This document shows, in pieces, positions 30,944 through 48,393 of a DNA stretch of 64,000 nucleotides. How positions within the stretch are numbered: position 1 is the first letter of the stretch; every line of letters starts with the position of its first letter. Below the pieces are notes generated by a model that saw only the letters and a list, made by a program, of their open reading frames with translations, was not told the origin of the DNA and searched no databases. This DNA is from an uncultured Acidobacteriaceae bacterium (GTDB lineage Bacteria > Acidobacteriota > Terriglobia > Terriglobales > Acidobacteriaceae). The stretch lies in the NCBI GenBank assembly GCA_963833155.1, contig CAWHWY010000001.1:51328-115327 (forward strand), read 5' to 3'. The translations under genes and the position numbers were made by a program.

Positions 30944-30970
30944 TGGCGGAAGGAGAGGGATTCGGATTCC
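30944..30970. repeat. Degenerate third copy of the tRNA-Ser 3' end (old att remnant)
   Basis: TGGCGGAAGGAGAGGGATTCGGATTCC matches TGGCGGAGGGAGAGGGATTCGAACCCC (33121 and 48304 copies) at 23/27, in the same orientation. Confidence 0.5.
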
Positions 30971-31184
30971 AAGCAGGCATTGATAACAGGCAAGTTATTG
31001 AATTGTAAGGTTGCCCAAAACGCTGAAAGCTCAAAATTGGGCGAATCGTTGCACGTATATTGTACGCAGCGCCAATCTTTCTCCTCCTCCGGTGATTTCT
31101 CCGTACTGTAACGGCAATAACTTCTCTTGTTCCCCTTCCTGAATCGTCAACCAACCGATATTCTTCTCGTTATAATCTCGCTAG

Positions 31185-31580
31185 ATGCGTGTTCACCTGC
31201 TTCCTCGCGACATCCGAGAAGTCTACCAAGTCGAGGAACGCCATCACGCCTGTTCGATTCTCAAGACTGATTTCCCCGCACAATGGAAAGATCTGATTGA
31301 CGTTTTGCGCGACTTTAAGCTGCGGAAGAGCTACATTGCCCAGAAGGGCGGCAACAAATCGCCAATTTCGAGAGCTATAGACGGCCTGTTCTTTGAACGC
31401 GGTTGGATAGAAAAGAGTTTTGACATCAGGGTGACTGCTGACGGAGTGCAGACGCTTGCCCCTACCCATCACGTCGATTACTACAAGGGCCGAATAGCTG
31501 TCGAGACCGAATGGAACAACAAAGACCTTCACGGTACGACTAACGCGGCACCTCGTAATTTCCCGGGCTTGCGAACCTGA
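31185..31580 (+). pseudogene. C-terminally truncated BglII/BstYI/BamHI-superfamily-like type II restriction endonuclease
   Basis: ..GGNKSPISRAIDGLFFERGWIEKSF..HHVDYYKGRIAVETEWNNKD has a D-x8-E-x-E core with the spacing of BglII-type enzymes. Similarity stops at about 31526, 14 nt before the convergent DpnI-like stop. The remaining 17 codons look like read-through. Confidence 0.5.
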
Positions 31581-32307
31581 CAAGGCCCAAATCGCGCAGC
31601 ACTTGTAGCTGCTGGCGTATCTTCGGTCGCACATTTTGATTGCGCGGATGGAGACGCTGAAGGTAGGGTTCAAGCTGATAGAGCTCCTGAAGCGAGAAGC
31701 GGGTTTTTCCCAGCGTACGTACGGCACCAAGCACATCGAGCGTCCAACCCCTTATCGCTGGCGGCACATCAGCCAGCTTCCGAACACGCGAGAATTCCTG
31801 TCGGACTTGCTTTTCCGCGACAATCGAACCATCTGACACGACCGCTATCCTACCGTCCTGAGGGATTCGATCCAGGAGAATGTTGCATCCTACCCACCCG
31901 GCCCGGCGCGCAGTGGGGCTCAGCGGAGCTCGCTTCTCAATAACCGTTTCCGAAAAGAAAACGTGGGGGACTAAGACCAGGTTTCTAACCAGCCAGTCAG
32001 AGGAGTACTGCAAGATCAACAAGTTAGGAACCTTGTCTGATCGTATCGCGCGGATCATTGAGTTGTACGCAGCATCCACGATCTTCCTTTGCCCCCAAGT
32101 CTTAAGGCTCTTCAGCTGGAAGCATTGGTCACACTGAGGGCAGACAAGGTCAAGGGCGGGAGTATTCGCTCTTGAGGGCAAAAGGCAATCGGAACTGCAG
32201 GCAGCACAATACAGCTCCCGCGCGCACCAGTCTTCGCCAAGCACACGAGCGATTTGGGAGGCAGCTTTGTAGGGACGGCCCAGCTCAACCCTGCACTGCA
32301 GGTTCAT
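31540..32307 (-). CDS. DpnI-family methyl-directed (GmATC) restriction endonuclease
   Basis: Collinear with my memory of pneumococcal DpnI: ..QIARVLGEDWCARELYCAACS..CPQCDQCFQLKS (Cys4), PLSPTARRAGWVGCNILL, and C-terminal winged helix ..RGWTLDVL..FSLQELY..IRQQLQVLRDLGLV. ATG 32307 (GTG 32322 in the track). Confidence 0.85.
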   Translation of the reverse strand: MNLQCRVELGRPYKAASQIARVLGEDWCARELYCAACSSDCLLPSRANTPALDLVCPQCDQCFQLKSLKTWGQRKIVDAAYNSMIRAIRSDKVPNLLILQYSSDWLVRNLVLVPHVFFSETVIEKRAPLSPTARRAGWVGCNILLDRIPQDGRIAVVSDGSIVAEKQVRQEFSRVRKLADVPPAIRGWTLDVLGAVRTLGKTRFSLQELYQLEPYLQRLHPRNQNVRPKIRQQLQVLRDLGLVRFASPGNYEVPR

Positions 32308-32318
32308 CGGCGCGCCCC

Positions 32319-32495
32319 TCACCGAGGCTCATACAGGCCGTTCTTGGTGCAGTACTCTCTGGCTTCATCTGATGGAAAGCTATCCCCTGCTTCGATGTTG
32401 TCGAAGTCGATTATCTCCACCGCGACACCCGTGGGCACGGTATCCTCGATCACATACGCGCATCCACCAGACACTGTAACAAATATCTTGCGCAT
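32319..32495 (-). CDS. 58-aa hypothetical protein translationally coupled upstream of the DpnI-like gene
   Basis: ATG 32495 lies 7 nt after GGAGAA. Peptide MRKIFVTVSGGCAYVIEDTVPTGVAVEIIDFDNIEAGDSFPSDEAREYCTKNGLYEPR. Its TGA overlaps the GTG 32322 of the endonuclease ORF (GTGA). Confidence 0.55.
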   Translation of the reverse strand: MRKIFVTVSGGCAYVIEDTVPTGVAVEIIDFDNIEAGDSFPSDEAREYCTKNGLYEPR

Positions 32496-32595
32496 CGCTG
32501 ATTCTCCGCTGATCACGACTGCTGCGCAGAAGGATATCACGCTAAAATCGCGTGCAATTGCAGTCAGAATTTCCTCAGCTGGACCCCCTCGTGCC

Positions 32596-33018
32596 ATGGA
32601 GGCGTGGGGCTTTGAATACAAGACGAATATTGTTTGGCTCAAAGTGAGAAGAGACGGCGGTCCCGACGGTCGCGGCGTGGGTTTTTATTATCGAAACGTT
32701 ACAGAACTCGTTCTCTTTGGAACGCGAGGTCATTTGAGAACTGCCCAAGCCGGGCGCAGGATGGTGAACTTCATTGCCACGATGAAAGAACGCCATTCCA
32801 AGAAACCCGACGAGCTCTATGACATGATCGAACATTGCAGCCCAGCGCCCTATCTCGAACTCTTCGCCCGAGGAACACGTAGAGGCTGGACGCAGTGGGG
32901 CGACGAAATCCCACCAAACGAAGATCCCGAGATCTCGAAAGCGAAAGTCTCGCCCCGTCCGATGGAAGACGGCATGATCAGACCCTATCGTATGCCCCAG
33001 TTGCCACTCCTCCCGTAG
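32596..33018 (+). pseudogene. N-terminally truncated MT-A70-family N6-adenine DNA methyltransferase
   Basis: MEAWGFEYKTNIVWLK..GVGFYYRNVTELVLFGTRG..HSKKPDELYDMIEHCSPAPYLELFARGTRRGWTQWGDE matches the C-terminal two thirds of MT-A70 enzymes. I found no DPPW/DPPY motif in any frame upstream (checked 32400-32595). Confidence 0.7.
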
Positions 33019-33120
33019 AAATAGGATCTTGGCGGCGGCCGATTTTACGTGTATTGCACATAGGAGCACGAACGGACAGCGTAACGCATTGGTTGCGCTT
33101 GAGTTGGATGCGTAGAGATA

Positions 33121-33178
33121 TGGCGGAGGGAGAGGGATTCGAACCCCCGATACCCTTTCAGGTATAGCGGTTTTCAAG
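33121..33178 (-). repeat. attR: 58-bp duplicate of the 3' part of tRNA-Ser(UGA)
   Basis: Identical to 48304-48361 except one position (A at 33150 versus G at 48333). It runs from CCA to the anticodon loop, then diverges. Confidence 0.85.
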
Positions 33179-33599
33179 TTCTCTACCTAGAGATGCTGCC
33201 CAGCAATCCCAATCACTTAGCAGTTGTACACCCGCACGAAATAGCATCACATGCGACCTCAGTAGTCAGTTACAGGACACCTTACGGGACAGGTGGGTAT
33301 TCCGGTGAAGGTGAACATCGATTCCGGAGGCAAGCCGAACGGCATTCCGGAGCGAAGGTGAACAGCAGTCGGAGCGAAGCGACGCTGACACGGTGATTGT
33401 GGAGCAAGTGTTCGGAATCGTCAAGCGAGATTGTCCGAAGCGTAGGGAAGGCAGGCTCAATCGCTCAATCCAAGAATCATCCGGAGTCGGAGATCTTTGG
33501 TCCAGTTGGCTCCGGGATTCCGGGGAAGGGTGCGCGAGGGAAGGGGCGGCGTCCCTTCCCTCGCTCAGCGCTTTAGAAGCCGGTAGCAGCGCTAGGAGG

Positions 33600-34391
33600 C
33601 TACTTGCCGGTGTTGACGTACTGGATGCAAAGGCCCTGATTGTTGAACACCGTTCCGTTAGGACGCTCGAGAAATTGCCACCCTCCGTTCTTGCACTGGT
33701 TTTTGTCGGTTGGGACTGGGTTCGCGAGCAGATAAACCTGAGCGGCCGTAAGAGCCCCGTCATAGATTTGTAATTCGTCGACGAGGCCGTAGAACTGCTG
33801 GGGTTGGGGGGAGGTTCCAATCAGGATGTCCGCTGTTTGGGTTCCGGGGGTGCCATACGGGTACCACGTAAGCACCAAATTACCGTTGATGTATCCGTTC
33901 ATGATGTTTCCGTCATAGGTCACGGCCACGTGGGTCCAGTTTCCAACCGGGCTTGGAGTAAGTGGCGCGGAATAGTTACAACCCGAACCATTGGGCGCCA
34001 CCAGGCATCCCTGCAAGTTCATGTTCACGTCGTCAAAGCTGCTGAGGTTCACCTGCCAGGAGCTTTCCGAATCGCCCAAGTTGCGTTTATCGGCGATGGC
34101 CGGATTTTGAGCGTAGGGCAGGTACGCCCAGTAGGCGACGGTGAAAGCTGGCGTCTGCAGACTGGGACTGTTTGGAATCCTGACGTAGCCTTGGCCTGCT
34201 GTGAGGTCAAGTGCCTGGCCGAACCTGCCGGGCGCATAACCCACAGTACCGGTAGCCGTCCCGTTGTTGTTGTTGCCAGACGAATCTAGCAGGTTTCCTT
34301 CGAAGCTCCACTGACCGACGAGATTCTGTGCCACGGCCAAGGGAGCCACAGAGACTAACAAAATGCTTAACACCAGTAGAAGTTTCTTCAT
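33600..34391 (-). CDS. Secreted LamG / concanavalin-A-like lectin domain protein
   Basis: Signal MKKLLLVLSILLVSVAPLAVAQ. The pattern LVGQWSFEGNLLDSSGNNNNGTATG..GQALDL..GYVRIP..FTVAYWAY..WTHVAVTYDG..NGYINGNL..DELQIYDGALTAAQV is the classic Laminin_G_3 signature. Confidence 0.85.
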   Translation of the reverse strand: MKKLLLVLSILLVSVAPLAVAQNLVGQWSFEGNLLDSSGNNNNGTATGTVGYAPGRFGQALDLTAGQGYVRIPNSPSLQTPAFTVAYWAYLPYAQNPAIADKRNLGDSESSWQVNLSSFDDVNMNLQGCLVAPNGSGCNYSAPLTPSPVGNWTHVAVTYDGNIMNGYINGNLVLTWYPYGTPGTQTADILIGTSPQPQQFYGLVDELQIYDGALTAAQVYLLANPVPTDKNQCKNGGWQFLERPNGTVFNNQGLCIQYVNTGK

Positions 34392-34705
34392 GCCATCCTC
34401 ACTTTTCTGTAGGTTAGGGCTGGGAGAGTTCGCAGATTCGACTCTCGCCGCGGGGTGAGCTTCAGAACAATCCGAAATCGCGATGCCTGCGTGGCATCGG
34501 TCATGAGATCAAATCGGATCGCAGAAATTACTTGTACCTTGTGCTATAAAGCTGGGCGATTGGGCCAACCATAAGAAAGGACATAGAGGGAAGACGTATG
34601 GTGTAGGCGCAATAGGGCGACTCTAAGCTTCATATTGCCGAACGTCAAGGAGATTCGGGGCTATCGTGAAATCGCCATCTCGCACTCAAAGATGTTGACT
34701 TTGGT

Positions 34706-35461
34706 TCATTCCTTCTTCTCGTCCTGCGGCGGATTGCGTTTCTTGCGCATGGACTCTCCGCGCATCTCGATGCGATGAGCGTTGTGCACCAGACGGTCGA
34801 GGATGCCGTCAGCGATGGTGGGATCGCCGATCTGCTCGTGCCAGCGCGAGATCGGCAACTGGGAAGTGAGGATGGTGGAACGAGTCTGGTAGCGATCTTC
34901 GCAGATCTCCCAGACTTCGCGGCGCTCGTTTTCATTCAGCGGCGCCATGGCCCAGTCATCAATGACCAGAACATCGATACGGCCCAGTCGAGCCAGGAAG
35001 TGACGCAAGCTTCCATCGGCCCGTGCCAGGGCCAGTTCGCGCAGCAAGGCGGCAGCCCGCAAATAGAGAGCCGAGTAGCCGTCGCGACAGGCTTTCTGTG
35101 CCAGGGCCGATGCGATGAAGCTCTTGCCCACGCCGGTCGGACCCAACACGAAAATGTTTTCGTGGTTGCGGACCCAGGCCGAGTCTTTTGCCAGAGCACG
35201 CACTACCGTCTTGTCCAGGCCACGCGCCGTGCGATAGTCGATGTCCTCCACACAGGCCGGTCCTCGCAGCTTGGCCGCTTTCAGTCTTCGCGCCAGCGCC
35301 TGGTTCTCGCGCCAACTCCATTGTTGATCGACCAGCAGCGCGAGTCGTTCGAGGAAACTCAGCTCGTTGATCGCTCGATCTTGCTCCTGCGTCTTCAGGG
35401 CCTCGACCATGCCCTGCAGCCGCATGGCCAGCAGTTTTTCCATCATCGGTTGGTTCAGCAT
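34706..35461 (-). CDS. istB: IS21-family helper ATPase IstB
   Basis: MLNQPMMEKLLAMRLQGM.., Walker A GPTGVGKS, Walker B VLVIDDW. Overlaps the istA stop. Confidence 0.95.
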   Translation of the reverse strand: MLNQPMMEKLLAMRLQGMVEALKTQEQDRAINELSFLERLALLVDQQWSWRENQALARRLKAAKLRGPACVEDIDYRTARGLDKTVVRALAKDSAWVRNHENIFVLGPTGVGKSFIASALAQKACRDGYSALYLRAAALLRELALARADGSLRHFLARLGRIDVLVIDDWAMAPLNENERREVWEICEDRYQTRSTILTSQLPISRWHEQIGDPTIADGILDRLVHNAHRIEMRGESMRKKRNPPQDEKKE

Positions 35462-37005
35462 GAGGTCGGTCCCCCTTGGTCGAAGTACTCGGCGCCGCGG
35501 ACATTGTCATGGGTCAGGGGTGGAGAGCCGGGTTGTGGTGGAGATAAGGGAACCGCGTCGAGCGAGTTCTTCAAGATCGACTTCACGCTCTGATAGCGAC
35601 AAGCCTGGGCGAGGAGTGCCCGTTCCGCCGCGGCTTCCATGCGTTGCCGGGAGTACTGCTGCGCCAGGCGAATGATGCCGAGACAGGAGCGGTAGCCCAT
35701 CTCCGGGTGCGGCTTCTCGTTCAGGATTCGCTCGAACAACTGGGCCGTGTTGGGACCGATGCTGCGTGCCCAGTTCACCATCCGCGATGGCGGCCATTCC
35801 AGATGGGCTTGATGACTCTTGGGGCGGTGCTCGTTCTGGGTGATGGCTTGACCGCGCCTGCGACTGCGCAGGTGGGAAGCGATCCGGTTGCCCTTGTGAA
35901 AGATCTCCACCGTGGTCGGCGTGGAGCGGACTTCCACGACCTGCTGCACCAGAGTGTACGGCACACTGTAAAAGTTCCCATCGAAGGCAATGTGGTAATC
36001 GATGTTGACGGTGGCACGCGACCACTGGCTCATGTCGAAGCGCTCGGCCGGTAACGCTGCCAGAGCCGGTTTCTCCAGGCTGTGAAACAGACTCGACCGC
36101 GATCCGTCCCGCTTGCGGAAAGGACGCTCATTCAGTCGCACCAGCAGCTCGCGGATCGCCTGGTTGAGTTCCGGCAGGCTGAAGAACTTCCGGTTTCGCA
36201 GCGCCGCCACGATCCAGCGTTCGCATACTTGCACTCCGCTTTCGGCCTTGGCCTTGTCCCGTGGCTTGTACGGACGTGCGGGCACGACTCCCATCCCGTA
36301 ATGCACCGCGAACTCTTGATAGGTGGGATTCAGGTCTGGATCGTAGCGGCAGGCTCGGGTGACGGCCGTCTTGGTGTTATCGGGTACTACCAGAATCGGC
36401 ACCCCGCCGAAAAACTCCAGCGCGTGGATGTGCGCCTGAATCCAGGCTTCCAGCTGCTGATCCCGAGTCGCTTCTGCGTAGGTGTAGGAACTGGCGCCCA
36501 GCACAGAAACAAACAGCGATGCTGGCCAGGCTTGCCCCGTCGTGGCGTCATACACGGGGATCGTTGCCCCCGCCCAGTCCACGAACATCTTTTCCCCGGC
36601 TTTGTGTTCCTGACGCAGCACCACATCCAGGTGCCGCCGCCAGTGCTGATAGCGCTCGCAAAACCAACTGTAGCGATACCCCTCGGGATTCGCTTGCCGG
36701 TATTCTTCCCACACCAACTGCAGGGTCAGATGACGATGTTGTTGCAGTTGCTGATGGATGGTATTCCAATCCGGTTGTGACCGCTGTCGCACCGCTCCGG
36801 CCTGCACGGGCTGGTTGCCAAACAGCTTGGCTTCCAGTTCTTCTTCGCCCAAGCCTTCCGGCAACGGCCAACCGATCCCGGCTGCCACCGCCCGTTCCAG
36901 ATACTCGTGGACCGTACCCAGCCCCATTCCGCAACTGCGTGCGATCTGGCGCTGCCCCAACCCCAACTCGAACCTCAACCGCAGGACCTCTTTGACTTTC
37001 CGCAT
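35455..37005 (-). CDS. istA: IS21-family transposase IstA
   Basis: ATG 37005 gives MRKVKEVLRLRFELGLGQRQIARSCGMGLGTVHEYL (HTH), followed by the DDE core ..FVDWAG..VPDNTK... The tracked ORF extends upstream to 37167. Confidence 0.95.
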   Translation of the reverse strand: MRKVKEVLRLRFELGLGQRQIARSCGMGLGTVHEYLERAVAAGIGWPLPEGLGEEELEAKLFGNQPVQAGAVRQRSQPDWNTIHQQLQQHRHLTLQLVWEEYRQANPEGYRYSWFCERYQHWRRHLDVVLRQEHKAGEKMFVDWAGATIPVYDATTGQAWPASLFVSVLGASSYTYAEATRDQQLEAWIQAHIHALEFFGGVPILVVPDNTKTAVTRACRYDPDLNPTYQEFAVHYGMGVVPARPYKPRDKAKAESGVQVCERWIVAALRNRKFFSLPELNQAIRELLVRLNERPFRKRDGSRSSLFHSLEKPALAALPAERFDMSQWSRATVNIDYHIAFDGNFYSVPYTLVQQVVEVRSTPTTVEIFHKGNRIASHLRSRRRGQAITQNEHRPKSHQAHLEWPPSRMVNWARSIGPNTAQLFERILNEKPHPEMGYRSCLGIIRLAQQYSRQRMEAAAERALLAQACRYQSVKSILKNSLDAVPLSPPQPGSPPLTHDNVRGAEYFDQGGPTSC

Positions 37006-37556
37006 GGACTTTCTCCTGGCCGGCACCCTGTCCTCCTTCATTGATGGAGTTTCAATGCCGGGTGATTGTCCAGCGTCGCTGCACCTCCTGCTGTTCGTCT
37101 GTGGAAAACATTCCGCTCCAAGCCGAACGCCATTCCGCCAGGCGACAAAAACTGTTCGCCTTCCCACCGGAATCGGCGTTCACCTTCAGACCGGAATGCT
37201 GTTCGGAATCACAACGGAATCGTGTTCGGCTTCACAGCGGAATCGCGTTCACCTTCGACCGGATTCCCCAACAGTAGATTTAACGGTCCCGCGTGTGGCT
37301 CCGTGAGTGGTTCCAGGCCAACAGCCCGCGACAAACGCGCTACAGTGCGCGGGGAGCGTTTCGCCGTCTCCCTAGTACCAGCGAGCAGCCGAAACGCCAG
37401 CAGCGGCCACGGGGCGCGCGGGGCTGTGCCTCTACGGAAGTTGTCAGAGCAAGAATTCAGCGGTTGATTTCCCCGAGAAATGACGGCGTTTTCACGCTAT
37501 GCCGAATCACCGAGAAATCATCAAGAATCATCAATCCGGGCAGCGCGCGACTCGCC

Positions 37557-37739
37557 TCAGAACAGCCAACTGCCGCGCCGTGACCGCCTGCTAGACCCGA
37601 AGATGGCCTTTCTGAACAGCGCACCCGCTTTACGTTCACGGCCCGAACGGGTGAGCGGGATGCCGATGTCCTTCGACATCTCCCGCTTCGCCCGTGTGAT
37701 GCCGAGCAGTCGCTTGAGGGAAAAACCACCCAAATTCAC
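37557..37739 (-). CDS. Possible small basic protein
   Basis: 60-codon ORF (..GFSLKRLLGITRAKREMSKDIGIPLTRSGRERKAG..) starting 20 nt after the T5orf172 gene stop. Weak evidence: no clear RBS. Confidence 0.25.
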   Translation of the reverse strand: MNLGGFSLKRLLGITRAKREMSKDIGIPLTRSGRERKAGALFRKAIFGSSRRSRRGSWLF

Positions 37740-38498
37740 GATGCTTTCTTTCTGCGAACCTAACTAAGACCACCCGCAGCGGCGAAGAGTCCATCTGGAA
37801 ACTTCCCGGTGGGTGGTGTCGACGGGACATTCGTTAGAACCTGCTCCCGCTTGGCTAAGGTTTCGCGGTACTCTCTTGCCTCGGGCACTCTGATGAATTG
37901 AGCGCTCAAGCCCTTGTTCCGGACGAATGTCTCGACTTCTTCGATTTCGACATCTCGATAGAACTCTCGTCGTGCATTGACCAGATTCAGTCGCCGCTCC
38001 GCAAACAGGTGGTGCAGCGCAGTCTCAAGATCGGGAGCGTTGTCAGAGTACAGGATGGCATGAAGATCGAAGGGAAAGGGAACCGATGCACCGCCAAGCT
38101 CGATAATTCGATCCATCGGCTCTAACCGCCGGGTCATACCGATCTTGTAAATTTTTTCTCCGAACGAGCCGATATTGGAAATCACGTAAACAAAGCCCGA
38201 CTTCGTGAATTGTGCTCGGGCGATCGCTTTCTCCTTCTTTTTTCGCGCTTCGTCTAGCTTGGCCTCAAACGAACTAAGCTGCTCAGTGAGTTTCTGAAGC
38301 TGGGCTCCGGTAGCCTTTGCGGCCTCCTCTCGTGCCTTCTCCAATGCCTTCTGGTACCTAGCTTCCTCTGACTCGGCCTCCTCTCGCGCCCTTTCGAACT
38401 CCTGACTTGCCTTGTCTTCCTCGCGCTTCTCTTCCCTTAGCCGACGTTGTTCTTCGCGTTCTTGATATCGCTTTTCCTCATATTCGTGCGTCAATCTA

Positions 38499-39588
38499 TT
38501 GACTTTTGCATAATATAGTTACAGCGGAAAGAGTTCCGCTTGTTCCCAGAAAGCGCAGACCAAGGTGGGCCGACGGCGCATCCGACGCAACGCTCGGCGT
38601 GCGGAATCGCTCAACTGTCCAAAGGTCGTGGGGCAGAAGTTGGGTAATTCGTGCTGCTTCCAGTGTGACCACAGATACTCCACTGGGTTCAGTTCTGGAG
38701 CATAGCCGGGAAGATATTCCAGCCACAGACGCCCCCTCTGTTGCTGTACGAACTGCCAGACGGCACGGCTGCGGTGCCCCGGCAGTCCGTCCCAAACGAT
38801 CAGCAGCTTGCCAGGAATATGGCGCAGCAGATGGGAAAGGAACTCAATGATTTGCGGGCTACGGATTGCTCCCGGAAACAGGCGGAAGTAAAAGTTCCAC
38901 CAGGTTACGCCCGCTATCGCCGACAAGGTCCTCCAATTAAAGTGGTATTGCAGCACGGGGGTCTGTCCGCGGGGTGCCCAGGTACGACAGCGGTGGGGAC
39001 GCTCGCTCAGCCCGCTCTCGTCGATGAAGACGATCGTGCGACCTTCGTTTTTGGCCTTTTTTTTAACTCCGGCCAGCGCTTCTGCTTCCACCGCCGGATC
39101 TTCTCTTCGTCCCGCTCCAAGGCGCGGCCCGTCGGACGCTGACAACTCCATCCCAACTGCCGCAGGATGCGCCATGCCTGCGAGGGATGGTAGGAAATCC
39201 CACATTCTTGCTCGATCAAATGGGTGACACGGTTGGTGGTCCACAATCCGGTCTCGTAGCCCAGGGTTTCCGGACCGCGTTTGAGTCCCTGCTCGATCTT
39301 GCCCAGATCCTCCACGCTCAACCGTGGCTTGCGGCCAGCACGGCCCGCCTTCTTCAGCCCGGCGCGGCCGTTCTCGCGTAACTCGGCCGCCCACTGACTT
39401 ACCGACTGCCGGTGCGCTCCCACTCGTCGGGCCACTTCCGACTGGCTGTACCCCTTCTCTAGGAGCCGCGCCGCCTGCATCCGCCGCTGCTCAAGTGCCT
39501 GAAAGTCTCGCCGAACTCCGGCCGGATTTCCCATGCCCAAACCATAGCACGAGATCAAGAAAATGTCACTATATTATTCAATAATCAA
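38499..39588 (-). mobile_element. IS630-family insertion sequence (1090 bp), TA target duplication
   Basis: 25-bp imperfect inverted repeats: TTGACTTTTGCATAATATAGTTACA (38499-38523) versus the reverse complement of 39564-39588, TTGATTATTGAATAATATAGTGACA (21/25). Flanked by TA at 38497-38498 and 39589-39590. Confidence 0.85.
38519..39534 (-). CDS. IS630-family DDE transposase in two overlapping frames joined at an A8 run
   Basis: HTH part MGNPAGVRRDFQALEQRRMQAARLLEKGYSQSEVARRV.. ends shortly after ..ELKKRPK. The DDE part ..KKKAKNEGRTIVFIDESG..LIVWDGLPGH..APELNPVEYLW lies in the -1 frame. The shift site is GTT-AAA-AAA-AAG (T8 on the plus strand, 39057-39064). Confidence 0.85.
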
Positions 39589-40426
39589 TAAGCTCATCAA
39601 GTTTCAGCTTCAGGTAATCCGCAGTCAGCGAGACCTTGAGCGCATCGCCGAGTTTGCTCACCGCCTCGAAGGACTTTCTAACCCGTTCCTCCATCTTCGT
39701 GGCGTTATTCCATGAAACATTTGCCAGTGCAGCCTCACACTCGCCGTTGAAAGCGCGGAGCAGCAGCTTCGAGTTAAGCTTTACCATTCGCTTTCCTTCT
39801 CGTTTGCTCTCGCCCACAGTCCAAACGACGGGGCAGAAAGCGGCCTTGCCGTCTCGAACCATCTGGCGCTCCCGTTCTCGTAGGTCCGTCAGAGCGACCT
39901 TGTACTCTTCGGGCGTCTGGAAGCTGAAGTGTGGTTGATAAACTCCGAAGGAAATGTCTTCGAGATTCTCCTCAAGAAGGCCGATTTCCTTCTGCAAACT
40001 GTTGTATGTATGCAGCGCATTCTGATATTCCTCCGTTAGTTTCGCACGCCGCTGATCGTTTTCCGCAGCGATCTCCTGTTGCTGGCGTCTTAATCCTTCG
40101 AGTTTGATTCTGTCGGCTTCTATCTCAGCGTTGATGTCAGCAATTCCCGCATAGCGCGCACGGAGATCCTTGTTGATGCCATCAATTTCCGCTTAGTGGG
40201 CTCGGAGGTCCTTCGAACTTCGCAGGCATCGCCAGAGAAAGAACGCGAGCACGAGAGTAATCGCAGTCAGCAGAAACATTGGTGGGTCTCCGAGAGAAGT
40301 CCTAGGGTCGCGCGGATTATTCCACCCGCGCAGCCTGCCCCGCAAGGACGCAGATCACAACGAGATGTGCAACTTCAAACAAAGCACTTAAATCAACGGA
40401 AATCACAAGAATCAAGTTTATCGCGC

Positions 40427-40609
40427 ATGGGGGAAAGCGGCGGGGAGCAACTAAAAGCTTCTGACGTTCTATGCGTTTTTGTTGCCCACTACCTAAAGGA
40501 CGGCAACGGCACAAGTGCGGCTATTGCAGCGGGTTACAGCCCAAAGAGTACAGCGGTCCACGCCATTCGGATGTTAAGAAATGCTAAGGTTGCGGAAGAA
40601 ATCGAACAG
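40427..40609 (+). pseudogene. N-terminal fragment of a phage terminase small subunit-like HTH protein
   Basis: MGESGGEQLKASDVLCVFVAHYLKDGNGTSAAIAAGYSPKSTAVHAIRMLRNAKVAEEIEQL matches the F(V/I)xEYLxDxNGTxAAIxAGYSxKSA pattern. Similarity ends where the convergent recombinase fragment ends. Confidence 0.5.
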
Positions 40610-41159
40610 CTACCCGAGACTCACGACGGTTGCAGGCTGGCCCGGCGCGCAGCCCAACGCCATACATACCCGGTGGATGTCACCTTTCGAGCGCCCCAGC
40701 CCTTCCGCAATCTCGCCGTAAGAGTCTCCGTCGGCGCGCATCCCCCGGATGATCTTGGCGTCTTTGTCGCGCTCCCGCTTCACCCTTGGCCTGCCTCCGA
40801 TGCGCCCCTTGCTGCGCGCATGGGCTAGACCGGCCTTCACTCGTTCGCGTATCAGCTCACGCTCGAACTCAGCCATTGCACCTATGACGTGGAACATCAT
40901 CCGTCCAGCCGGCGTGGTCAGGTCCAGGGTTGTAACGCAGCGATACGAAAGCGCAGCCTACCGCTTGCAGTTCGGCTAGCGCGTCCACAAGGTGACGCAG
41001 GCTGCGCCCGAAGCGGTCCAGCTTCCAGCAGACAATGACATCCACTTTGCGCGCCTTGGCGAGGCGCATCATGGCGTCGAGTTGCGGGCGGTGATCTTTG
41101 GACCCGGAGCACGTGTCCACGAACTCGCCCGCGATCTGCCAGCCGCAGTCTAAGCGCAT
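40610..41159 (-). pseudogene. Serine recombinase (resolvase/invertase), 5'-truncated and frame-shifted
   Basis: ..DTCSGSKDHRPQLDAMMRLAKARKVDVIVCWKLDRFGRSLRHL.. and ..LDLTTPAGRMMFHVIGAMAEFERELIRERVKAGL..HTH. The catalytic-Ser segment (YxRVSTxxQ) is absent. The frame changes in a C3 run (G3 on the plus strand, 40927-40929). Confidence 0.75.
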
Positions 41160-41218
41160 GAGCCAGCCGCGGCGCGCTCTAAACTCCTTTTAGTGCTTCA
41201 TAGCTGGATTTGTCCCAT

Positions 41219-42490
41219 CTACGGGGTGATCTCCCAGACGACACCGCAACCGCTCGGGAGACATCCTTCGCCGCCCGCCTCGGTCGTGCCGTAGAGATTG
41301 CCGTGGGCGTCAAATATGATGTCGCTTAATGGATATCCCCCGTCGCTGCCGCCCGTAAAATCGTGGAGATCGATGTAAGTCCAGCCACCGTTCGAGGGCG
41401 TTAGTTTGAAAGCCGAACCGTATCCATAAGCGCCTTCCTGGTTGGTCGTGCCATAGAGGTTACCAGCAGCGTCCATAGTTAGGCTGGCTTGCGGTCCTCC
41501 AAAATCCCCAGACCCGCCGGTGAAGCTGTAAAGAATGCTTTCTATCCATTGCCCTCCAGAGGACGGCGTCAGCTCGAAGACCGTGCCGCAACCTTGCCTG
41601 CCATAACACCCGGAACCTCCTCCATTATGCGTGACACCATATAGATCGCCCGAATTGTCGAAGATCAGGCCGCCAGCAGGACCTAAACCGTCACTGCCGC
41701 CCTGAAAAGTGTAGAGAACGTTCTCTGTCCAACCAGAGCCAGACGTGGTCAACTCGAAAGCCAGCCCATAACCGTATACGCCGCCGCCACCCGCGACCCC
41801 GTACAAGTTGCCGGATGTATCCAGTATCAGGCCGCTAGGGCTATCACCATTGCCTCCGTCGAATATATAGCTACGGGTTTCCTCCCATCCTCCATTGGAA
41901 GGTGTCAGCTCGACGATAATTCCATCCCCATACCCAAAACTGCTGAGATACATTTTGCCCGCTGGGTCGAAAATTACCCCACGGTCGGGATTAGCTCCAT
42001 CTCCGCCTCCCGTGAACCGATAAAGCACGGTTTCATTCCAAGGGCATAGTGCGGTTTTGCAGGCTGACGGTTGGGGTCTTAGACTGAAAACCGTTCCGCA
42101 GCCACTCCCGCCGACGCATCCGCTACCTCCTCCAGAGAAGGTCGTGCCGTAGAGGCTGCCGTCCGAACCGATGGTTACCCCCGCCGTTCCTGGGTACTCC
42201 CCGTCGTTGTCCCCTTGAAAGCTGTAAAGCGGAGAGAAAACCCAGCCAGAGCCTTTGTGCGACAGCTTGAATACCGTGCCGAAGCCAACTCCGCCCGCGT
42301 CGGTCGTGCCGTAGAGATTTCCTGCCTTATCCAGCGTCAAGCCGGCAGAAGGTTCTCCCCCGTCCTGTCCGCCGGTGAAGGCGTGCAGTACGGTGAATGT
42401 CTGGGCCTGGGCCGATTGCGAACAAACAATCGCAAGCGCAAACGTCAACAACCTGAAAAGACAGTAATGAGTTGAGGATAAGCGGCGCAT
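41219..42490 (-). CDS. Secreted Gloeo_Verruco (GloVer) repeat beta-propeller protein
   Basis: Signal MRRLSSTHYCLFRLLTFALAIVCSQSAQAQ, then seven G(N/S/D)LYG(T/V)T..GG..G(T/V)VF(K/E)L units. Ends ..CGVVWEITP. Confidence 0.8.
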   Translation of the reverse strand: MRRLSSTHYCLFRLLTFALAIVCSQSAQAQTFTVLHAFTGGQDGGEPSAGLTLDKAGNLYGTTDAGGVGFGTVFKLSHKGSGWVFSPLYSFQGDNDGEYPGTAGVTIGSDGSLYGTTFSGGGSGCVGGSGCGTVFSLRPQPSACKTALCPWNETVLYRFTGGGDGANPDRGVIFDPAGKMYLSSFGYGDGIIVELTPSNGGWEETRSYIFDGGNGDSPSGLILDTSGNLYGVAGGGGVYGYGLAFELTTSGSGWTENVLYTFQGGSDGLGPAGGLIFDNSGDLYGVTHNGGGSGCYGRQGCGTVFELTPSSGGQWIESILYSFTGGSGDFGGPQASLTMDAAGNLYGTTNQEGAYGYGSAFKLTPSNGGWTYIDLHDFTGGSDGGYPLSDIIFDAHGNLYGTTEAGGEGCLPSGCGVVWEITP

Positions 42491-42533
42491 GGTTCGCCCC
42501 TTTTGGTGCTTGCGTTAGCTGGATTTGTCCCAG

Positions 42534-43853
42534 TTATGGCGTGATCTCCCAGACAACGCCGCAACCGGAAGGGTAGCATCCTGTGCCACCGCTCGACGCC
42601 GTGCCGTAGAGATCGCCATTGGCGTCGAGGATGACGTTGCTATACGGCTGTCCTCCGTCGCTTCCCCCGGTGAAATCGTGCAGGTCGCTATATGTCCAGC
42701 CGCCGTTTGGATCAGGTGTCAGCTTGAAAACCGAACCGTATCCGTAGGTGCCGTCCCCATACGTAGTACCGTACAGGTTGCCTGCGGCATCCATAGCCAA
42801 CACGGCTAGGGAGCCTGGTGGGTAGGAGTTCCCGGATTGGTTGAAGCTATAAAGCACGGTCTGTTTCCAACTGCCATTGGTCGGTGACAGTTCGTAAACA
42901 GTACCGCCGTTACCTAAGCCGCCCCAGCCAGTCGTACCATAGAGATTTCCCGACTGATCAAAGATCAGGCCACCCGTTGGATTTCCGTCGCTTCCGATTT
43001 GAAAGGCATAGAGAATATTCTCGGCCCAGCTGGATCCTGAAGGCGTTAACTGGAAAGCCGTGCCTTCGTTATAGCCGCCCATGCCCTCAGTCGTACCATA
43101 GAGGTTTCCTGCTTGATCGAAGATCACGCCACTGAATGGGTATCCCCCATCGTTTTCTCCAGTGAAGCTGTAAAGAACGCTTTCTGTCCAGCCGCCATTG
43201 GTCGGTAACAGTTCGTAAACAGTACCGCAGCCCGTGCCGTCACATCCCGGACCTCCTCCTTCTTCTGTAGTGTCGTAGATGTTCCCTGCTTCATCGAATA
43301 CAACGTCACCCTGTCCGGGAGCCCACCCATCCGTGCCTGCCTGGAACGAATAAAGCACGGTTTCCGTCCAAGGGCATAGTGCGGTTTTGCAGGCTGACGG
43401 CTGGGGTCTTAGATTGAAAACCGTTCCGCAGCCATATGAGCACTTGTCGGAAGTTCCTCCTCCGGACACCGTTGTGCCGTAGAGGCTGCCGTTCGGGCCG
43501 ATGATTACTCTGGCTCGTGGATTAGCCCCATCAAAGCGTCCTTGAAAGTTGTACAGCGAGTTCAAGACCCAGCCGGAGCCGGTATGCTTCAGCTCAAACA
43601 CCCCGCCGCATCCAACATATTCGCCCAGGCACCCGTTGTACCCGCCATCAAATGTCGTTCCATAGAGATTTCCAGCTCTATCCATTGTTAGTCCGGCGTA
43701 GGGATTTGCTCCGTCCTGCCCGTGAGTGAAGGTGTGCAATACAGTGAATGTCTGGGCTCGCGCCGATGGGGCCGCGACGACCGTCAGCGCAAGCACTGCC
43801 GCTCGCAAGATGGTGCGGGAGAGTAAATTCTGAAGCTGCTGTTTGCTGCGCAT
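42534..43853 (-). CDS. Secreted Gloeo_Verruco (GloVer) repeat beta-propeller protein (paralogue)
   Basis: ATG 43853 follows GGAGAGGAG. Signal ..LRAAVLALTVVAAPSARAQ, seven LYGTT-type units, and the same ..CGVVWEITP end. The ~60 bp around the stop/3' flank is near-identical to that of 41219-42490. Confidence 0.8.
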   Translation of the reverse strand: MRSKQQLQNLLSRTILRAAVLALTVVAAPSARAQTFTVLHTFTHGQDGANPYAGLTMDRAGNLYGTTFDGGYNGCLGEYVGCGGVFELKHTGSGWVLNSLYNFQGRFDGANPRARVIIGPNGSLYGTTVSGGGTSDKCSYGCGTVFNLRPQPSACKTALCPWTETVLYSFQAGTDGWAPGQGDVVFDEAGNIYDTTEEGGGPGCDGTGCGTVYELLPTNGGWTESVLYSFTGENDGGYPFSGVIFDQAGNLYGTTEGMGGYNEGTAFQLTPSGSSWAENILYAFQIGSDGNPTGGLIFDQSGNLYGTTGWGGLGNGGTVYELSPTNGSWKQTVLYSFNQSGNSYPPGSLAVLAMDAAGNLYGTTYGDGTYGYGSVFKLTPDPNGGWTYSDLHDFTGGSDGGQPYSNVILDANGDLYGTASSGGTGCYPSGCGVVWEITP

Positions 43854-43998
43854 GGGGTTTAACTCCTCTCCGTGCGGATCGGGATGAATTAAAAGCCGAA
43901 GCAGCAAGCCTCGCAAGGAGCTAGATCACATGAGTACGTGAGGAGTAAACTCGTAGCTTCGCAAATGGCGACGTTCGGAATGAAGGAGTGGCAGCGTT

Positions 43999-44820
43999 GT
44001 GCAATCCGCGAAGGAGCAATTCGGAGACAAGCTGAATGCCGCAAAGCGGCGCCTCTCGAACGCCCTGTCCGATATACAGCGCAACTTCCTGCTGAGCAAC
44101 CGAGTCACTTTCAGCACATCGTCGGGCATAACTGCCGCTAACCGTGCCATCAATGAAGCGTACCTGTCCAGTATCCGTTCCGTTTATGTCCAAGCATTCC
44201 TCGAAAAGTCGGAGGCCTGCATCACCGATTGGTTCTACACCCTTCTCGCGATAGCAACTGACTTTCCAGGTCAGATCGGCGAGGAATCCGCTGTCTCGTG
44301 GGCGAAGGCTATCGCAGTCCGAGTCATCACGGAAGACGTGAAGGATTCCTGTTCGGAATTTCTGCCGCAGCTACTAATGACGTTAGACCGTCTTGTGGAC
44401 GAGGAGCTGTTGCGGCAGCTACCGCAAAGTGCCGAACCAGAGCCTGCCCAATCAAGCAGCGCGAGTGCGGCAACTTGGGACACGATCGAAATTTCGTTCC
44501 TGAGCGATGAACGGGTACAGATTCGCAATGGTGGCAGCAGCGCAACCTGTAACTACGGGGAGCTTGGCTTCGAAGATCACAGAGGCGGAAAACCAAATCT
44601 TGCGTGGGAGACCCTACGTGAACTGGCAGAGCAGAGTGGAGTTATTCGAGAAGCAAGGCAAGGGTTTCAGGCGCGACCGAAGCTTGAGAAACGAATCCAA
44701 GAAATCCGAAAAGCACTTCGAAAGTACTTCGACATATCGGCTGATCCCATCCCGTTTGTAGAAGGCGCCGGATACCGCGCATGTTTCAAGATCGTCTGTG
44801 CGCCCTCGTTCCCCACGTAG
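43999..44820 (+). CDS. Hypothetical protein (273 aa) of the island
   Basis: GTG 43999 lies 9 nt after GAAGGAG. No family recognised. The C-terminal ..WDTIEISFLSDERVQIRNGG..YGELGFEDHRGGKPNLAWETLRELA.. looks like a DNA-binding/regulatory module seen in mobile elements (impression only). Confidence 0.5.
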   Translation: MQSAKEQFGDKLNAAKRRLSNALSDIQRNFLLSNRVTFSTSSGITAANRAINEAYLSSIRSVYVQAFLEKSEACITDWFYTLLAIATDFPGQIGEESAVSWAKAIAVRVITEDVKDSCSEFLPQLLMTLDRLVDEELLRQLPQSAEPEPAQSSSASAATWDTIEISFLSDERVQIRNGGSSATCNYGELGFEDHRGGKPNLAWETLRELAEQSGVIREARQGFQARPKLEKRIQEIRKALRKYFDISADPIPFVEGAGYRACFKIVCAPSFPT

Positions 44821-44973
44821 GCGAATTTTCTCCAACAGCAAACAAAAAACTTTGAATTATTTTCGCCTAATCTTTCAATGGCTTAGGGGAGTTTTCGCCG
44901 AAAACCCTGTTCTCCTGTCGAATTTTCGCCAGTAGTGGGCGACGCGGAAAAATTTCCGCAAGGAGCGGTGATT

Positions 44974-45201
44974 ATGAACAGACTTAGAGCGATGCGAAAG
45001 GCCGCTGGTCTCACACAATTCGCGCTCGCCCAGATCGCGGGGGTCTCACGCTTTCGCCTTTCCATGGCCGAGACCGGCTACCTGGAATTGAGGCCCGAGG
45101 AGGTCGCCGCGATAACGAACGTGGTGCGGCCCGAGATGGAAAAAACCGCACGCTTGGTCTCGGAGCTTGCTGCTGTGGGCGCGCGAGGGGGAGCAAGATG
45201 A
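44974..45201 (+). CDS. XRE-family helix-turn-helix regulator
   Basis: ATG 44974 follows AAGGAG. MNRLRAMRKAAGLTQFALAQIAGVSRFRLSMAETG is a canonical HTH_3 pattern. Confidence 0.8.
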   Translation: MNRLRAMRKAAGLTQFALAQIAGVSRFRLSMAETGYLELRPEEVAAITNVVRPEMEKTARLVSELAAVGARGGAR

Positions 45202-45794
45202 CCGACGGGAAATCAAAATCTGCACGCGGTGGGAACCGACCCGGCACTGGTCGTAAGCCCGGCGTCTCTCGCAATCGTGAAACTGCACTGGCGTTGATCG
45301 AACGTGAACTGATTCGCGAGGCGACCACTCACAGCAACTCACCGGCGGAATTGTCAAAAGAGAAACCCCGGACGCTGGAGGTGTTCGGACCCCTTGCGGA
45401 AAAAGCATTTGGGAGCGACTCCCTTCGAGACAAAACGGCTATCGTTTTCATAACTCAGCTCTGTGATGCCATGTATCCAGGTCGCGCAGGTCGCGGCTTG
45501 CAGGAATCGGGCGATTTCTGCATTAACACTGTGGCGTCGATTGGGCCGCGTGACGCCGTCGAGACCATGTTAGTCGTTCAGATGATCGGGACTCACAACA
45601 ACGCTATGGACCTCCTCCGCACCAAGCAACCCCGTGAGGCCGCGCGACTCTTGCGCGCATACGCCGCCCAGGTTGTGGCTTTGCGTGATTACAGGAGGAA
45701 AGGCGAGCAGCGGGTAACCATCGAACACGTGAGCGTGGGAGCTGGTGGCCAAGCGATTGTTGGCCAAGTAGTAACGGGGGGGGCAGAAAAATGA
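45198..45794 (+). CDS. Hypothetical protein (198 aa), translationally coupled (ATGA)
   Basis: Basic N-terminus GGNRPGTGRKPG, conserved-looking tail ..RVTIEHVSVGAGGQAIVGQV. Start overlaps the XRE stop. Confidence 0.55.
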   Translation: MTDGKSKSARGGNRPGTGRKPGVSRNRETALALIERELIREATTHSNSPAELSKEKPRTLEVFGPLAEKAFGSDSLRDKTAIVFITQLCDAMYPGRAGRGLQESGDFCINTVASIGPRDAVETMLVVQMIGTHNNAMDLLRTKQPREAARLLRAYAAQVVALRDYRRKGEQRVTIEHVSVGAGGQAIVGQVVTGGAEK

Positions 45795-46381
45795 GGAGTG
45801 GACTCCCGCCGATCACGCTAAGCGAGCCTTTCCCGCTCTTGGACGATGGACAGTATGTCGCACGCTGCACAGAGGCGACGTTCGCATGGGCGCGGCAGTG
45901 GAACAAATGGATGGCACGTCTTGTGCTTGAGCCTCTCAATTACCAAGGACGGCCCTACTCAGGACGGCTCTGCAAGTTTCTCGGACTCGGCAAAGACCCT
46001 CAGAAACCCTACGCCGGGCCGCAGAGTGACTTCAGGCAATTGCTCGTCGAGGTGAACGGCGCGCAGCCGACGGCCCAAGCCGCTGGGATGGAAGTTTTTG
46101 TTCATGTTCTCTACGAAATCGAAGTTGTGACCGTGAAGAAGGACAGAGAAGGCAAGCCGCGCCCGGCTGAGCACTGGTACAGCATCGTGCGCGAGATTCA
46201 TCCGTACAAGCAAGGCTCTGAGCGCACGCGAACCCTTCAACCCTCAAACCCTGTACCCTTCAACCATTCAACACCTAGAACACAGACAACACTTACAACC
46301 GACCAACACAGCAACACCGTAAACACACCCCTGGCAAGAGCGAGAGCGAAGCACGGAGACGGAATTGACAAGTTTGGGTAG
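45791..46381 (+). CDS. Hypothetical protein (196 aa), translationally coupled (ATGA)
   Basis: Start overlaps the previous stop. Globular first 135 aa, then a low-complexity Thr/Asn/Pro tail. Confidence 0.5.
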   Translation: MRSGLPPITLSEPFPLLDDGQYVARCTEATFAWARQWNKWMARLVLEPLNYQGRPYSGRLCKFLGLGKDPQKPYAGPQSDFRQLLVEVNGAQPTAQAAGMEVFVHVLYEIEVVTVKKDREGKPRPAEHWYSIVREIHPYKQGSERTRTLQPSNPVPFNHSTPRTQTTLTTDQHSNTVNTPLARARAKHGDGIDKFG

Positions 46382-46498
46382 TGAGTCTTTCGACCAAAAG
46401 CACAAACTACCCCGAAGGCGGGGCTAGTTCTTTCGCAAGGGGCTGGCCCTGCCTGGCAAATCAGGAATCGCGGTTTCTCTAACCGCTATACAAGGTAA

Positions 46499-46753
46499 GT
46501 GATTGAAACCATGAGTGAAAAAACGGTAGATGTCCCAATGATGTCCCGAACTAGCGGAATCGGCAGTATTGAGCTAATCGACGCGGGGGAACTTGCGGCC
46601 CGTTGGCGCGTGCCTCCGTCGTGGATTCGCAACCGGACACGCGCCCGTACTCCGAGGGAAGAACGTATCCCATGCTTGAGGCTTGGGCGCTATGTGCGCT
46701 TTGAGTGGGGATCAGTCCCATTATGGGAATGGCTGGAGAAAAAACGAAACTAA
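46499..46753 (+). CDS. AlpA/excisionase-like HTH protein
   Basis: ..IDAGELAARWRVPPSWIRNRTRA..IPCLRLGRYVRFEW..WEWLEKKR fits the MerR-like HTH_17 excisionase pattern. The start may be ATG 46511. Confidence 0.6.
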   Translation: MIETMSEKTVDVPMMSRTSGIGSIELIDAGELAARWRVPPSWIRNRTRARTPREERIPCLRLGRYVRFEWGSVPLWEWLEKKRN

Positions 46754-46766
46754 CCGCATTTCCCCC

Positions 46767-46795
46767 TTGACATGCTTAACGCTAAGTACGATAAT
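46767..46795 (+). promoter_or_regulatory. Near-consensus sigma70-type promoter (TTGACA-17-GATAAT) for the small-protein/integrase operon
   Basis: TTGACA 46767-46772, an exact 17-nt spacer, GATAAT 46790-46795. ATG 46802 lies 7 nt after the -10 box, implying a leaderless or nearly leaderless mRNA. Confidence 0.5.
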
Positions 46796-46801
46796 TCAGG
46801 C

Positions 46802-47008
46802 ATGGCGAAAAAGAAAAACCCGAACGCTGTGGCCTTGGGCAGTCTTGGCGGGACGGCCCGCGCGGAATCTCTGTCGAAGGCGAAACTTGCTAAGATCGCG
46901 AGCGAAGGCGGGAAAGCAAGGGCCGCGAAGTTATCCGCTGCTGAACTCAGCCGGATTGCAAAGCTCGCTGTTGCAGCCCGCGAACGCAAGAGAAAGGGGA
47001 ATAGCTAA
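46802..47008 (+). CDS. Small basic repeat protein (GG.AR...LS motif, two copies)
   Basis: MAKKKNPNAVALGSLGGTARAESLSKAKLAKIASEGGKARAAKLSAAELSRIAKLAVAARERKRK. The stop TAA abuts the integrase ATG 47009. Confidence 0.5.
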   Translation: MAKKKNPNAVALGSLGGTARAESLSKAKLAKIASEGGKARAAKLSAAELSRIAKLAVAARERKRKGNS

Positions 47009-48271: not shown

Positions 48272-48303
48272 CGTGCGAAGTGATTGGGATTGCAAGATTT
48301 AAA

Positions 48304-48393
48304 TGGCGGAGGGAGAGGGATTCGAACCCCCGGTACCCTTTCAGGTATAGCGGTTTTCAAGACCGCCTGTTTCAACCGCTCACACATCCCTCC
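48304..48393 (-). tRNA. tRNA-Ser (anticodon UGA), class II, CCA encoded
   Basis: Folded by hand: acceptor GGAGGGA/TCCCTCC, 3-bp D stem, anticodon stem GCGGT/ACCGC with loop CTTGAAA, long variable arm TACC-TGAAA-GGTA, and T arm GGGGG-TTCGAAT-CCCTC. Confidence 0.9.

Follow-up and report, generated by a model that had tools for sequence, protein, structure and literature searches.

In pneumococcus, a single locus carries, depending on the strain, either a methylating restriction-modification (R-M) cassette or a DpnI-type (dpnC) cassette; both systems act on GATC, whole cassettes are swapped through homology lying outside the genes, and their spread by homologous recombination has been shown (PMC3812788). 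At the leuS/dam locus of Neisseria, the DpnI-family gene drg (NmeBII), of foreign composition, lies in the gene for the methylase that would make its target (PMC516771, PMC4269198); the genotypes are mutually exclusive, some drg copies are frameshifted, and drg, inserted in dam, has spread through horizontal exchange (PMC516771). Here we describe a locus in a 64,000-nucleotide (nt) stretch of DNA from an uncultured Acidobacteriaceae bacterium (the window), in which a DpnI-family endonuclease gene and a small partner open reading frame (ORF) stand between the remnants of a BglII-like restriction endonuclease (REase) gene and of an MT-A70 methyltransferase (methylase) gene.

As in pneumococcus, one site can hold either a methylating R-M system or a DpnI-type cassette; unlike there, the breakpoints lie inside the REase and methylase genes, the gene remnants are the shared homology, and several chromosomal sites are concerned. 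The likeness to Neisseria is the presence of a DpnI-family gene within a methylase gene, whereas drg belongs to another phylum, displaces an orphan Dam (alpha class, against the beta class of MT-A70) rather than a two-gene R-M operon, and has no small partner ORF described with it. MT-A70-clade methylases of "BglII R-M systems" form a recognised pairing (PMC4738411), to which the intact relatives of our locus conform with a 196-amino-acid (aa) REase followed by a 220-aa methylase bearing the motif DPPW; the window, unlike them, carries both genes truncated and non-functional. The most favoured reading, with a probability of about 0.72, sees in the locus an eroded copy of a Type II R-M operon's cassette allele, one created by an ancestral insertion, spread by recombination and followed by decay of the gene remnants.

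The units compared are loci rather than whole genomes: 80 came from a scan of one genome per species with the DpnI-like protein as query, 80 further ones from a metagenome scan with the intact REase, and eight more from look-ups of small-ORF homologues. Labels such as L001 designate the homologous loci gathered in these scans.

The locus, its intact counterpart and the cassette genes

Four reading frames form the locus, 31185-31580 and 32254-33018 on the plus strand and 31540-32322 and 32319-32495 on the minus strand (Table 1), and the NCBIfam profiles name none of their products. A preliminary description, made from the letters of the window, had placed the loss of REase similarity at about 31526 and the return of methylase similarity, without the DPPW half, at about 32590, with an intact two-gene unit in the opposite orientation between them, and each of these points was borne out. 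The first ORF matches Pfam Endonuc-BglII (PF09195) over profile positions 1-94 of 163 (E value 2e-19) and retains the D-x8-E-x-E catalytic stretch, with the C-terminal 82 residues gone. Homologues of this 131-aa fragment do not end where it does: nearly all are 196 aa long, and their alignment with the window protein stops at about residue 114, DNA similarity ending at 31527. Beyond that position the open frame continues to 31580 through unrelated sequence, and the missing C-terminal piece is absent elsewhere in the window. The window gene is thus a fragment of a member of the BglII/BstYI family, with an open frame and 87% protein identity to intact enzymes, and not a complete REase of about 196 aa. 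A perfect TATAAT at 31171-31176, 8 nt upstream of its ATG, suggests a leaderless or very-short-leader transcript that would run antisense into the DpnI-like gene.

On the other side, ORF 32254-33018 matches Pfam MT-A70 (PF05063) at profile positions 62-172 of 172 only, from about 32593. Weaker similarity begins already at about 32548 (residue ~55), and residues ~63-79 have been lost in an internal deletion; a 140-aa ORF stays open from ATG 32596 to 33018. The intact 220-aa methylase has the DPPW motif at residues 21-24; the remnant lacks it, and neither this motif nor an N-terminal methylase piece occurs anywhere in the locus or the whole window, which therefore holds no MT-A70 enzyme combining DPPW with the C-terminal S-adenosylmethionine (AdoMet)-binding part.

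An intact version of the operon was found on a metagenome contig (L001, REase P0003), where the gene for a 196-aa REase and, 35 nt further on, that for a 220-aa MT-A70 protein with the motif LIDPPWQF precede two small ORFs, an integrase gene and tRNA-Ser. By blastn, window positions 31197-31527 correspond to 6013-6343 of L001 at 80% nt identity and 32590-33010 to 6863-7283 at 73%, which maps the breakpoints: 519 bp of the L001 operon are replaced in the window by 1062 bp on the opposite strand. Since exactly this segment of a colinear operon, intact elsewhere, has been replaced, the structure is far beyond chance. The DpnI stop codon (31540-31542) lies 12-13 nt from the last REase-like base, close to the 14 nt from the last REase-like codon first claimed. 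Metagenomes yielded about 70 intact REase-methylase operons and 6 more cassette loci, the intact relatives being L001 and L090-L169. The region had also been called more AT-rich than its flanks, and G+C content is indeed lower, with 51% for the REase remnant, 55-56% for the cassette as well as the methylase remnant, and 46% for 30944-31184, against 58-60% in the flanks, a bias that is real but modest.

The DpnI-like ORF (31540-32322) covers nearly the whole of Pfam DpnI (PF06044, 1-181 of 183, 9e-57) and DpnI_C (PF17726, 3-69 of 70, 1e-23), can be aligned from end to end with 4ESJ, the crystal chain of R.DpnI (E 4e-56, 37% identity), and matches the PADLOC profile mREase_II, for Type II methyl-directed enzymes, over 1-253 of 256 (4e-68). 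Its product has the full-length two-domain architecture of R.DpnI (4ESJ/4KYW; PMC3424567), with an N-terminal PD-(D/E)XK nuclease domain containing a CxxC...CxxC zinc site and D58...Q69-x-K71, and a C-terminal winged helix with the recognition helix KIRQQLQ. Catalytic D53, E64 and K66 of R.DpnI thus correspond to D58, Q69 and K71, and in the recognition helix E228 is P in the window protein, while K229, R231, Q232 and Q235, whose roles have been described (PMC3424567), are invariant in 89 of 89 homologues. That the change of E64 to Q inactivates the enzyme was considered and rejected because D...QxK stands in place of D...ExK in 78 of the 80 DpnI homologues, and the change is probably tolerated. 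Methyl dependence is suggested by the homology to R.DpnI, the conserved helix and the lack of any partner methylase: the simplest view of a nuclease that stands alone, no working methylase beside it, is that of a methyl-directed enzyme. The product is most likely, like R.DpnI, a solitary methylation-dependent cutter of Gm6ATC (GATC carrying N6-methyladenine, m6A) that would need no protecting methylase.

The non-synonymous substitution rate divided by the synonymous one (dN/dS, omega) is 0.02-0.15 for the DpnI-like gene in comparisons with its relatives, with values of 0.02-0.11 against those of the window type, and about 0.03-0.2 for the small ORF, and both genes, intact in the window, are under purifying selection. 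In several other cassette copies the DpnI-like gene is split by a frameshift (L022, L025, L034, L035, L036 at ~6001-6770, and the P0002 contig); these may reflect real decay, as in some Neisseria drg alleles, or assembly errors in long-read metagenome-assembled genomes (MAGs).

The small ORF has at least 170 homologues of 61-63 aa (including P0121-P0240), with invariant G10, G11, P21 and D30 and an FPS motif. It contains no Pfam domain, and its family is in no domain library. An AlphaFold2 (AF2) model gives a small alpha/beta unit with a predicted local distance difference test (pLDDT) score of 91, for which a fold search returned no significant PDB match. In relatives its stop codon overlaps the DpnI start, and in distant clades as well it lies beside DpnI genes, either upstream or downstream (L024, L064). 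Its product is a conserved partner of DpnI-type enzymes. The pneumococcal DpnI cassette also has a second gene, dpnD, of unknown function.

Upstream of the small ORF lies a conserved leader block (32522-32547, reading TTTTAGCGTGATATCCTTCTGCGCAG on the minus strand) that contains an extended -10-like element, TGATATCCT, at 32531-32539. The block, with the consensus TTTCG-GCGTGATATCCTT-CTGC, of which the window copy is the reverse complement of 32522-47, precedes the ATG of the small ORF by 25-45 nt in nearly every cassette locus, even where no methylase remnant is left. It belongs to the cassette, whose left end it would form, and resembles an extended -10 promoter, putatively that of the small ORF-DpnI operon; a scan of the locus for two-hexamer sigma-70 promoters and terminators found nothing above shuffled sequence, and none at the leader block. 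The two-gene unit of the preliminary description stands, while its extent does not, as the cassette reaches to about 32547 with its own conserved upstream block. An earlier placement of the methylase-side junction at codon ~40 was abandoned when a wider alignment showed that the block concerned is the cassette leader and that the junction lies at codon ~48-50.

Erosion series and same-site alleles

About 25 independent loci, all from Acidobacteriota, carry the small ORF and the DpnI-like gene, with 67-94% mutual DNA identity and saturated synonymous sites between cassettes. A methylase remnant is present in about 12 of these independent loci, always on the opposite strand and upstream of the small ORF, and the longest remnants, in at least 7 loci, begin at codon ~48-50. 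This shared start, together with the saturated synonymous sites, points to an old allele common to many Acidobacteriota. On the REase side the cassette ends at the DpnI stop codon, and the REase remnant is cut at locus-specific points, between residues 113 and 185 where any of it survives: it is kept to residue ~185 in L086, ~175 in L131 and L150, ~164 in L140 and L141, ~148 in L162, 128 in P0002 and ~115 in the window, and nothing of it is left in L003 and L087. The simplest explanation of this series would be one ancestral insertion at the boundary of the two genes followed by nested deletions, the ancestral loss having been confined to the final ~10-15 codons of the REase gene, the spacer and about 48 codons of the methylase gene. 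Relative to the longest stumps, ~210 bp more are gone from the REase gene in the window and ~40 bp more from the methylase gene, and the window copy is among the most eroded.

Both alleles are found at the same site in related genomes in at least three chromosomal contexts. L003 (cassette) and L101 (intact) have flanks in common, on the methylase side 2.9 kb with 90.2% identity and on the REase side 2.0 kb with 92.6%, the cassette of L003 replacing 803 bp of L101, namely the whole REase gene and 150 nt of the methylase gene. Likewise L087 (cassette), located between uppS/cdsA/dxr and an HtrA-like gene, shares its flanks with L105 (intact), and L086 (cassette, with L002) shares its flanks with L097 (intact). 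The pneumococcus-like replacement proposed in the preliminary description is upheld to this extent, that both alleles can occupy one site in related genomes; the alternation is seen in these three pairs and not at the window's own site, and the replacement itself did not take place in this genome.

Cassettes and remnants do not share the same history. Over REase codons 4-114, each cassette-linked remnant is nearest to the intact gene of another locus (L150 to L092, 94.9% nt identity; L140 to L095, 91.6%; L162 to L091, 90.7%), and over methylase codons 82-216 the remnants are again nearest to intact genes of other loci (L003 to L101, 93.5%; L036 to L099, 93.3%; L140 to L092, 91.2%). The cassettes of L150 or L140 are 65-66% identical to that of L162, against 86-89% for the remnants; those of L002, L003 and L141 are 93-94% identical in unrelated flanks; and L002 and L086 have flanks 81% identical and cassettes 78.6% identical. 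As an ORF list and a Pfam profile search revealed no recombinase gene in the cassette, and given these discordances, the best reading is that it would be exchanged between alleles by homologous recombination, with the gene stumps or the outer flanks as the regions of homology, a mode that for Neisseria drg has been inferred (PMC516771) and for the pneumococcal Dpn cassettes shown (PMC3812788).

The locus may have formed as follows. A unit of about 1 kb, made up of the promoter-like block, the small ORF and the DpnI-family gene, would have entered, in inverse orientation, where the REase gene adjoins the methylase gene, with loss of the 3' end of the former, the spacer and, from the latter, the first ~48 codons, DPPW included. 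The comparison with the intact operon shows that both activities were killed in this single event. The disrupted operon could since have acted as a vehicle: what is left of it, the REase 5' part and the methylase 3' part, is homologous to the intact operons of other cells, so that homologous recombination would put the cassette in place of a resident operon's middle, and exchange in the opposite direction may happen as well. Exchange through the remnants would leave both alleles at the same sites in related genomes, the pairs being observed and the recombination between them presumed. After acquisition the remnants would decay by nested deletions, frameshifts and stops, the window having its REase remnant cut to residue 114 and its methylase remnant shortened by an extra internal deletion.

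The same two families also meet in other arrangements. In a second architecture (L013 4894-6981, L017 5440-6765), a BglII-like stub, a Zn-ribbon-like ORF of 72-76 aa (YYxCPxxGTxWxDxWSxxCNDxCPxC, no Pfam family), a DpnI gene and an MT-A70 stub starting at residue ~98 all lie on one strand, next to a XerD-like integrase gene in L013. L024 has the order REase stub, DpnI, small ORF, methylase stub, and L044 has DpnI followed by a methylase stub. A Kryptoniota MAG (L021 5197-6780) encodes a full-length BglII-family REase (Pfam 1-162 of 163) followed directly by a DpnI-like gene; no methylase was found within reach of this pair, and lethality would be expected of a lone conventional REase. IS200-like Y1 transposase genes were seen near DpnI-family genes in 5 of the 130 flanking ORFs scanned, including L086 6236-6682, which hints at recombination-prone defence or mobile regions.

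Genomic setting

In the window, the locus is bordered by partial copies of tRNA-Ser(UGA), of which the left one is a putative old attachment-site scar at the islet edge and the right one an attachment-site scar; in L001 an intact operon of this type stands near an integrase gene and tRNA-Ser. The locus is thus a 2.2-kb decayed integrative islet of the L001 kind that has lost its integrase and most of the tRNA copy. Beside the intact tRNA-Ser(UGA) gene no integrase was identified, and no att repeat of the L001 element was found within 10 kb of L001 sequence. The islet lies inside a 17-kb stretch of mobile DNA (30944-48393) that looks like stacked remnants of integrative elements, with several further ORFs that belong to no family.

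Table 1. Features of the locus and of the surrounding mobile-DNA stretch (window coordinates)
Feature	Position	Strand	Remarks
tRNA-Ser(UGA) 3'-end copy, ~21 nt	30944-30964	-	direct repeat D1; 2 mismatches in 22 nt
REase 5' remnant (BglII/BstYI family)	31185-31527	+	residues 1-114 of 196; pseudogene
REase-side junction	31528-31539		12 nt, last REase-like base to DpnI stop; from blastn end point and junction alignment
DpnI-family endonuclease gene	31540-32307	-	255 aa from ATG 32307; 260 aa if GTG 32322
Small partner ORF, 58 aa	32319-32495	-	conserved; 61-63 aa elsewhere
Cassette leader	32496-32547	-	ribosome-binding site GGAGAA 32502-32507; conserved block 32522-32547
MT-A70 N6-adenine DNA methyltransferase 3' remnant	32548-33018	+	residues ~55-220 of 220, without ~63-79
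tRNA-Ser(UGA) 3'-part copy, 58 nt	33121-33178	-	1 mismatch; about 100 nt past methylase stop
Laminin_G_3 protein	33600-34391		
IS21 istA/istB	34706-37167		
T5orf172/MUG113 protein	37760-38494		
DDE_3 transposase	38519-39394		
Terminase small-subunit fragment	40196-40828		
Intact tRNA-Ser(UGA) gene	48304-48393	-	ARAGORN; anchors the 17-kb variable region around the locus

Rival readings and biological meaning

The intact methylase carries DPPW, its closest matches are the DNA m6A enzymes of the MT-A70 clade, and no intact MT-A70 gene stands beside any cassette in the local neighbourhoods of the loci. We consider it somewhat better than an even bet that the old methylase, paired with a BglII/BstYI-type REase, made Gm6ATC-containing sites, which would make the old system and the new one incompatible and account for a methylase that is broken in every case. 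DPPW is the mark of N6-adenine enzymes, and the sole adenine shared by BglII/BstYI/BamHI-like sites would be that in GATC. A conflicting account, which we think unlikely, is that there was one accidental landing, carried along by recombination and defence-island turnover, in an old system that did not methylate GATC, the enzyme perhaps being a conventional REase against which a methylase from another locus protects the cell. The GATC specificity of the BglII-like/MT-A70 pair is itself a prediction, the shared start of the methylase remnant shows most window-type copies to come from one event, and GATC in the window is neither depleted nor unusual (statistics for GATC, AGATCT and RGATCY in the 64 kb are ordinary, or rest on counts too low to interpret). 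R-M loci in general may also be landing sites, as an intact ~390-aa DPPY N6_N4 methylase, nearest to CcrM (6PBD, E 1e-57) and thus of GANTC type, adjoins the DpnI-like gene in 18 of the 67 more distant DpnI-family loci, in 16 of them immediately upstream and on the same strand (L041-L043, L045, L047, L048, L050, L053, L058, L061, L062, L065, L068, L069, L077, L079) and downstream on the opposite strand in L033 and L070. These were considered as conventional R-M pairs and rejected, their methylase being of GANTC type, which would not create Gm6ATC and would be in no conflict with Gm6ATC cutting; one possibility is that a DpnI gene replaced a HinfI-like REase beside it. Set against an accidental landing are this very contrast, between an MT-A70 partner that is always broken and a CcrM-like partner that is always intact, the recurrence of the same two families in the other architectures (L013/L017, L024, L044), the lethality to be expected of a lone conventional REase, and the invariance of the helix that reads Gm6ATC.

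The methylase remnant raises a different alternative, in which 32596-33018 would be a working third gene of the DpnI module, for example a DNA- or AdoMet-binding regulator, kept by selection. Among cassette loci, pairwise comparison of codons 82-216 gives dN of 0.02-0.10, saturated dS and an omega of about 0.02-0.04, tighter than for the DpnI-like gene; the fragment occurs in about 12 independent loci, and in L087-89 the Joint Genome Institute (JGI) calls the 140-aa ORF, headed by a conserved Met, as a gene. When changes are polarised, however, the count of non-synonymous changes over that of synonymous ones (N/S) is 3.7-fold higher on cassette branches (25/194) than on intact branches (6/172; P=0.004), and the truncated, sometimes frameshifted and certainly dead REase remnant has the same low N/S (19/82 on cassette branches against 7/75 on intact ones), from which it follows that a low omega here reflects recent descent from working genes. 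Each methylase remnant is, moreover, nearer to an intact methylase elsewhere than to the other remnants, the fragment is missing in about half of the cassette loci (L005, L022, L082, L086, L141 and others), and lesions are found in others: a stop in L006, a frameshift in L131 two codons past Met82, large deletions in L007 and L141, and loss of Met82 in L002. Recent descent from working genes, or recombination with them, accounts better for the low ratio, and exaptation, first suggested by an omega of ~0.03, was dropped after the branch test, the matching REase pattern and these lesions and absences; we hold it very improbable. Still less credible is that the cassette replaced the operon middle in this genome's recent past. 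The open frame of the REase remnant, its 87% protein identity to intact enzymes and the position of the locus within a mobile-DNA region would suit such an event, yet the window cassette is 67-76% identical in DNA to every other cassette and the remnants are 77-80% identical to the nearest intact genes, secondary deletions not seen in the other loci lie on both sides, and the islet retains neither its integrase nor most of its tRNA copy.

Several points do weigh against an eroded, recombinationally spread cassette allele active on Gm6ATC. Characterised BglII, BstYI and BamHI methylases are N4-cytosine enzymes. The frequency of GATC in the window is ordinary (observed/expected 0.86), and a Q stands where R.DpnI has catalytic E64. 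The intact REase has no direct sequence match among the solved BglII, BstYI and BamHI structures. None of the 169 loci is syntenic with the window's own flanks, and the recombination itself is deduced from discordant histories of remnants and cassettes rather than from mapped crossovers, so that the whole disrupted operon could instead move as a unit. Finally, non-synonymous changes in the methylase remnant are far below neutral expectation, and the remnant may have some function.

A further and more doubtful step is to see in the cassette a selfish killer of operons. Its stumps would then act as built-in homology arms for repeated homing into intact Gm6ATC-producing R-M operons across Acidobacteriota, wherever these lie, destroying them and turning a methylating cell into a restricting one in a single viable step; DpnI-family genes in several phyla may have done so independently to the same type of operon.

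The swap in which a methylase goes out and a methyl-directed nuclease comes in, so far documented in pneumococcus and Neisseria, reaches with this locus a phylum abundant in soil and an operon of the classical two-gene Type II form, and the comparison adds an erosion series, same-site allele pairs, evidence for recombinational spread, a conserved partner protein and a prediction of specificity. The unusually clear series from intact operon to long stumps, short stumps and none shows what fossils conflicts between defence systems leave behind, and why pairs of R-M pseudogenes around an odd gene are not to be dismissed as junk. For the large BglII-like/MT-A70 family, the prediction is m6A within GATC, and for DpnI-type enzymes the conserved partner protein of about 60 aa, which has no known fold or function, is flagged. 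The locus also carries a warning, that low dN/dS in a gene fragment can stem from recurrent recombination with working alleles and not from function.

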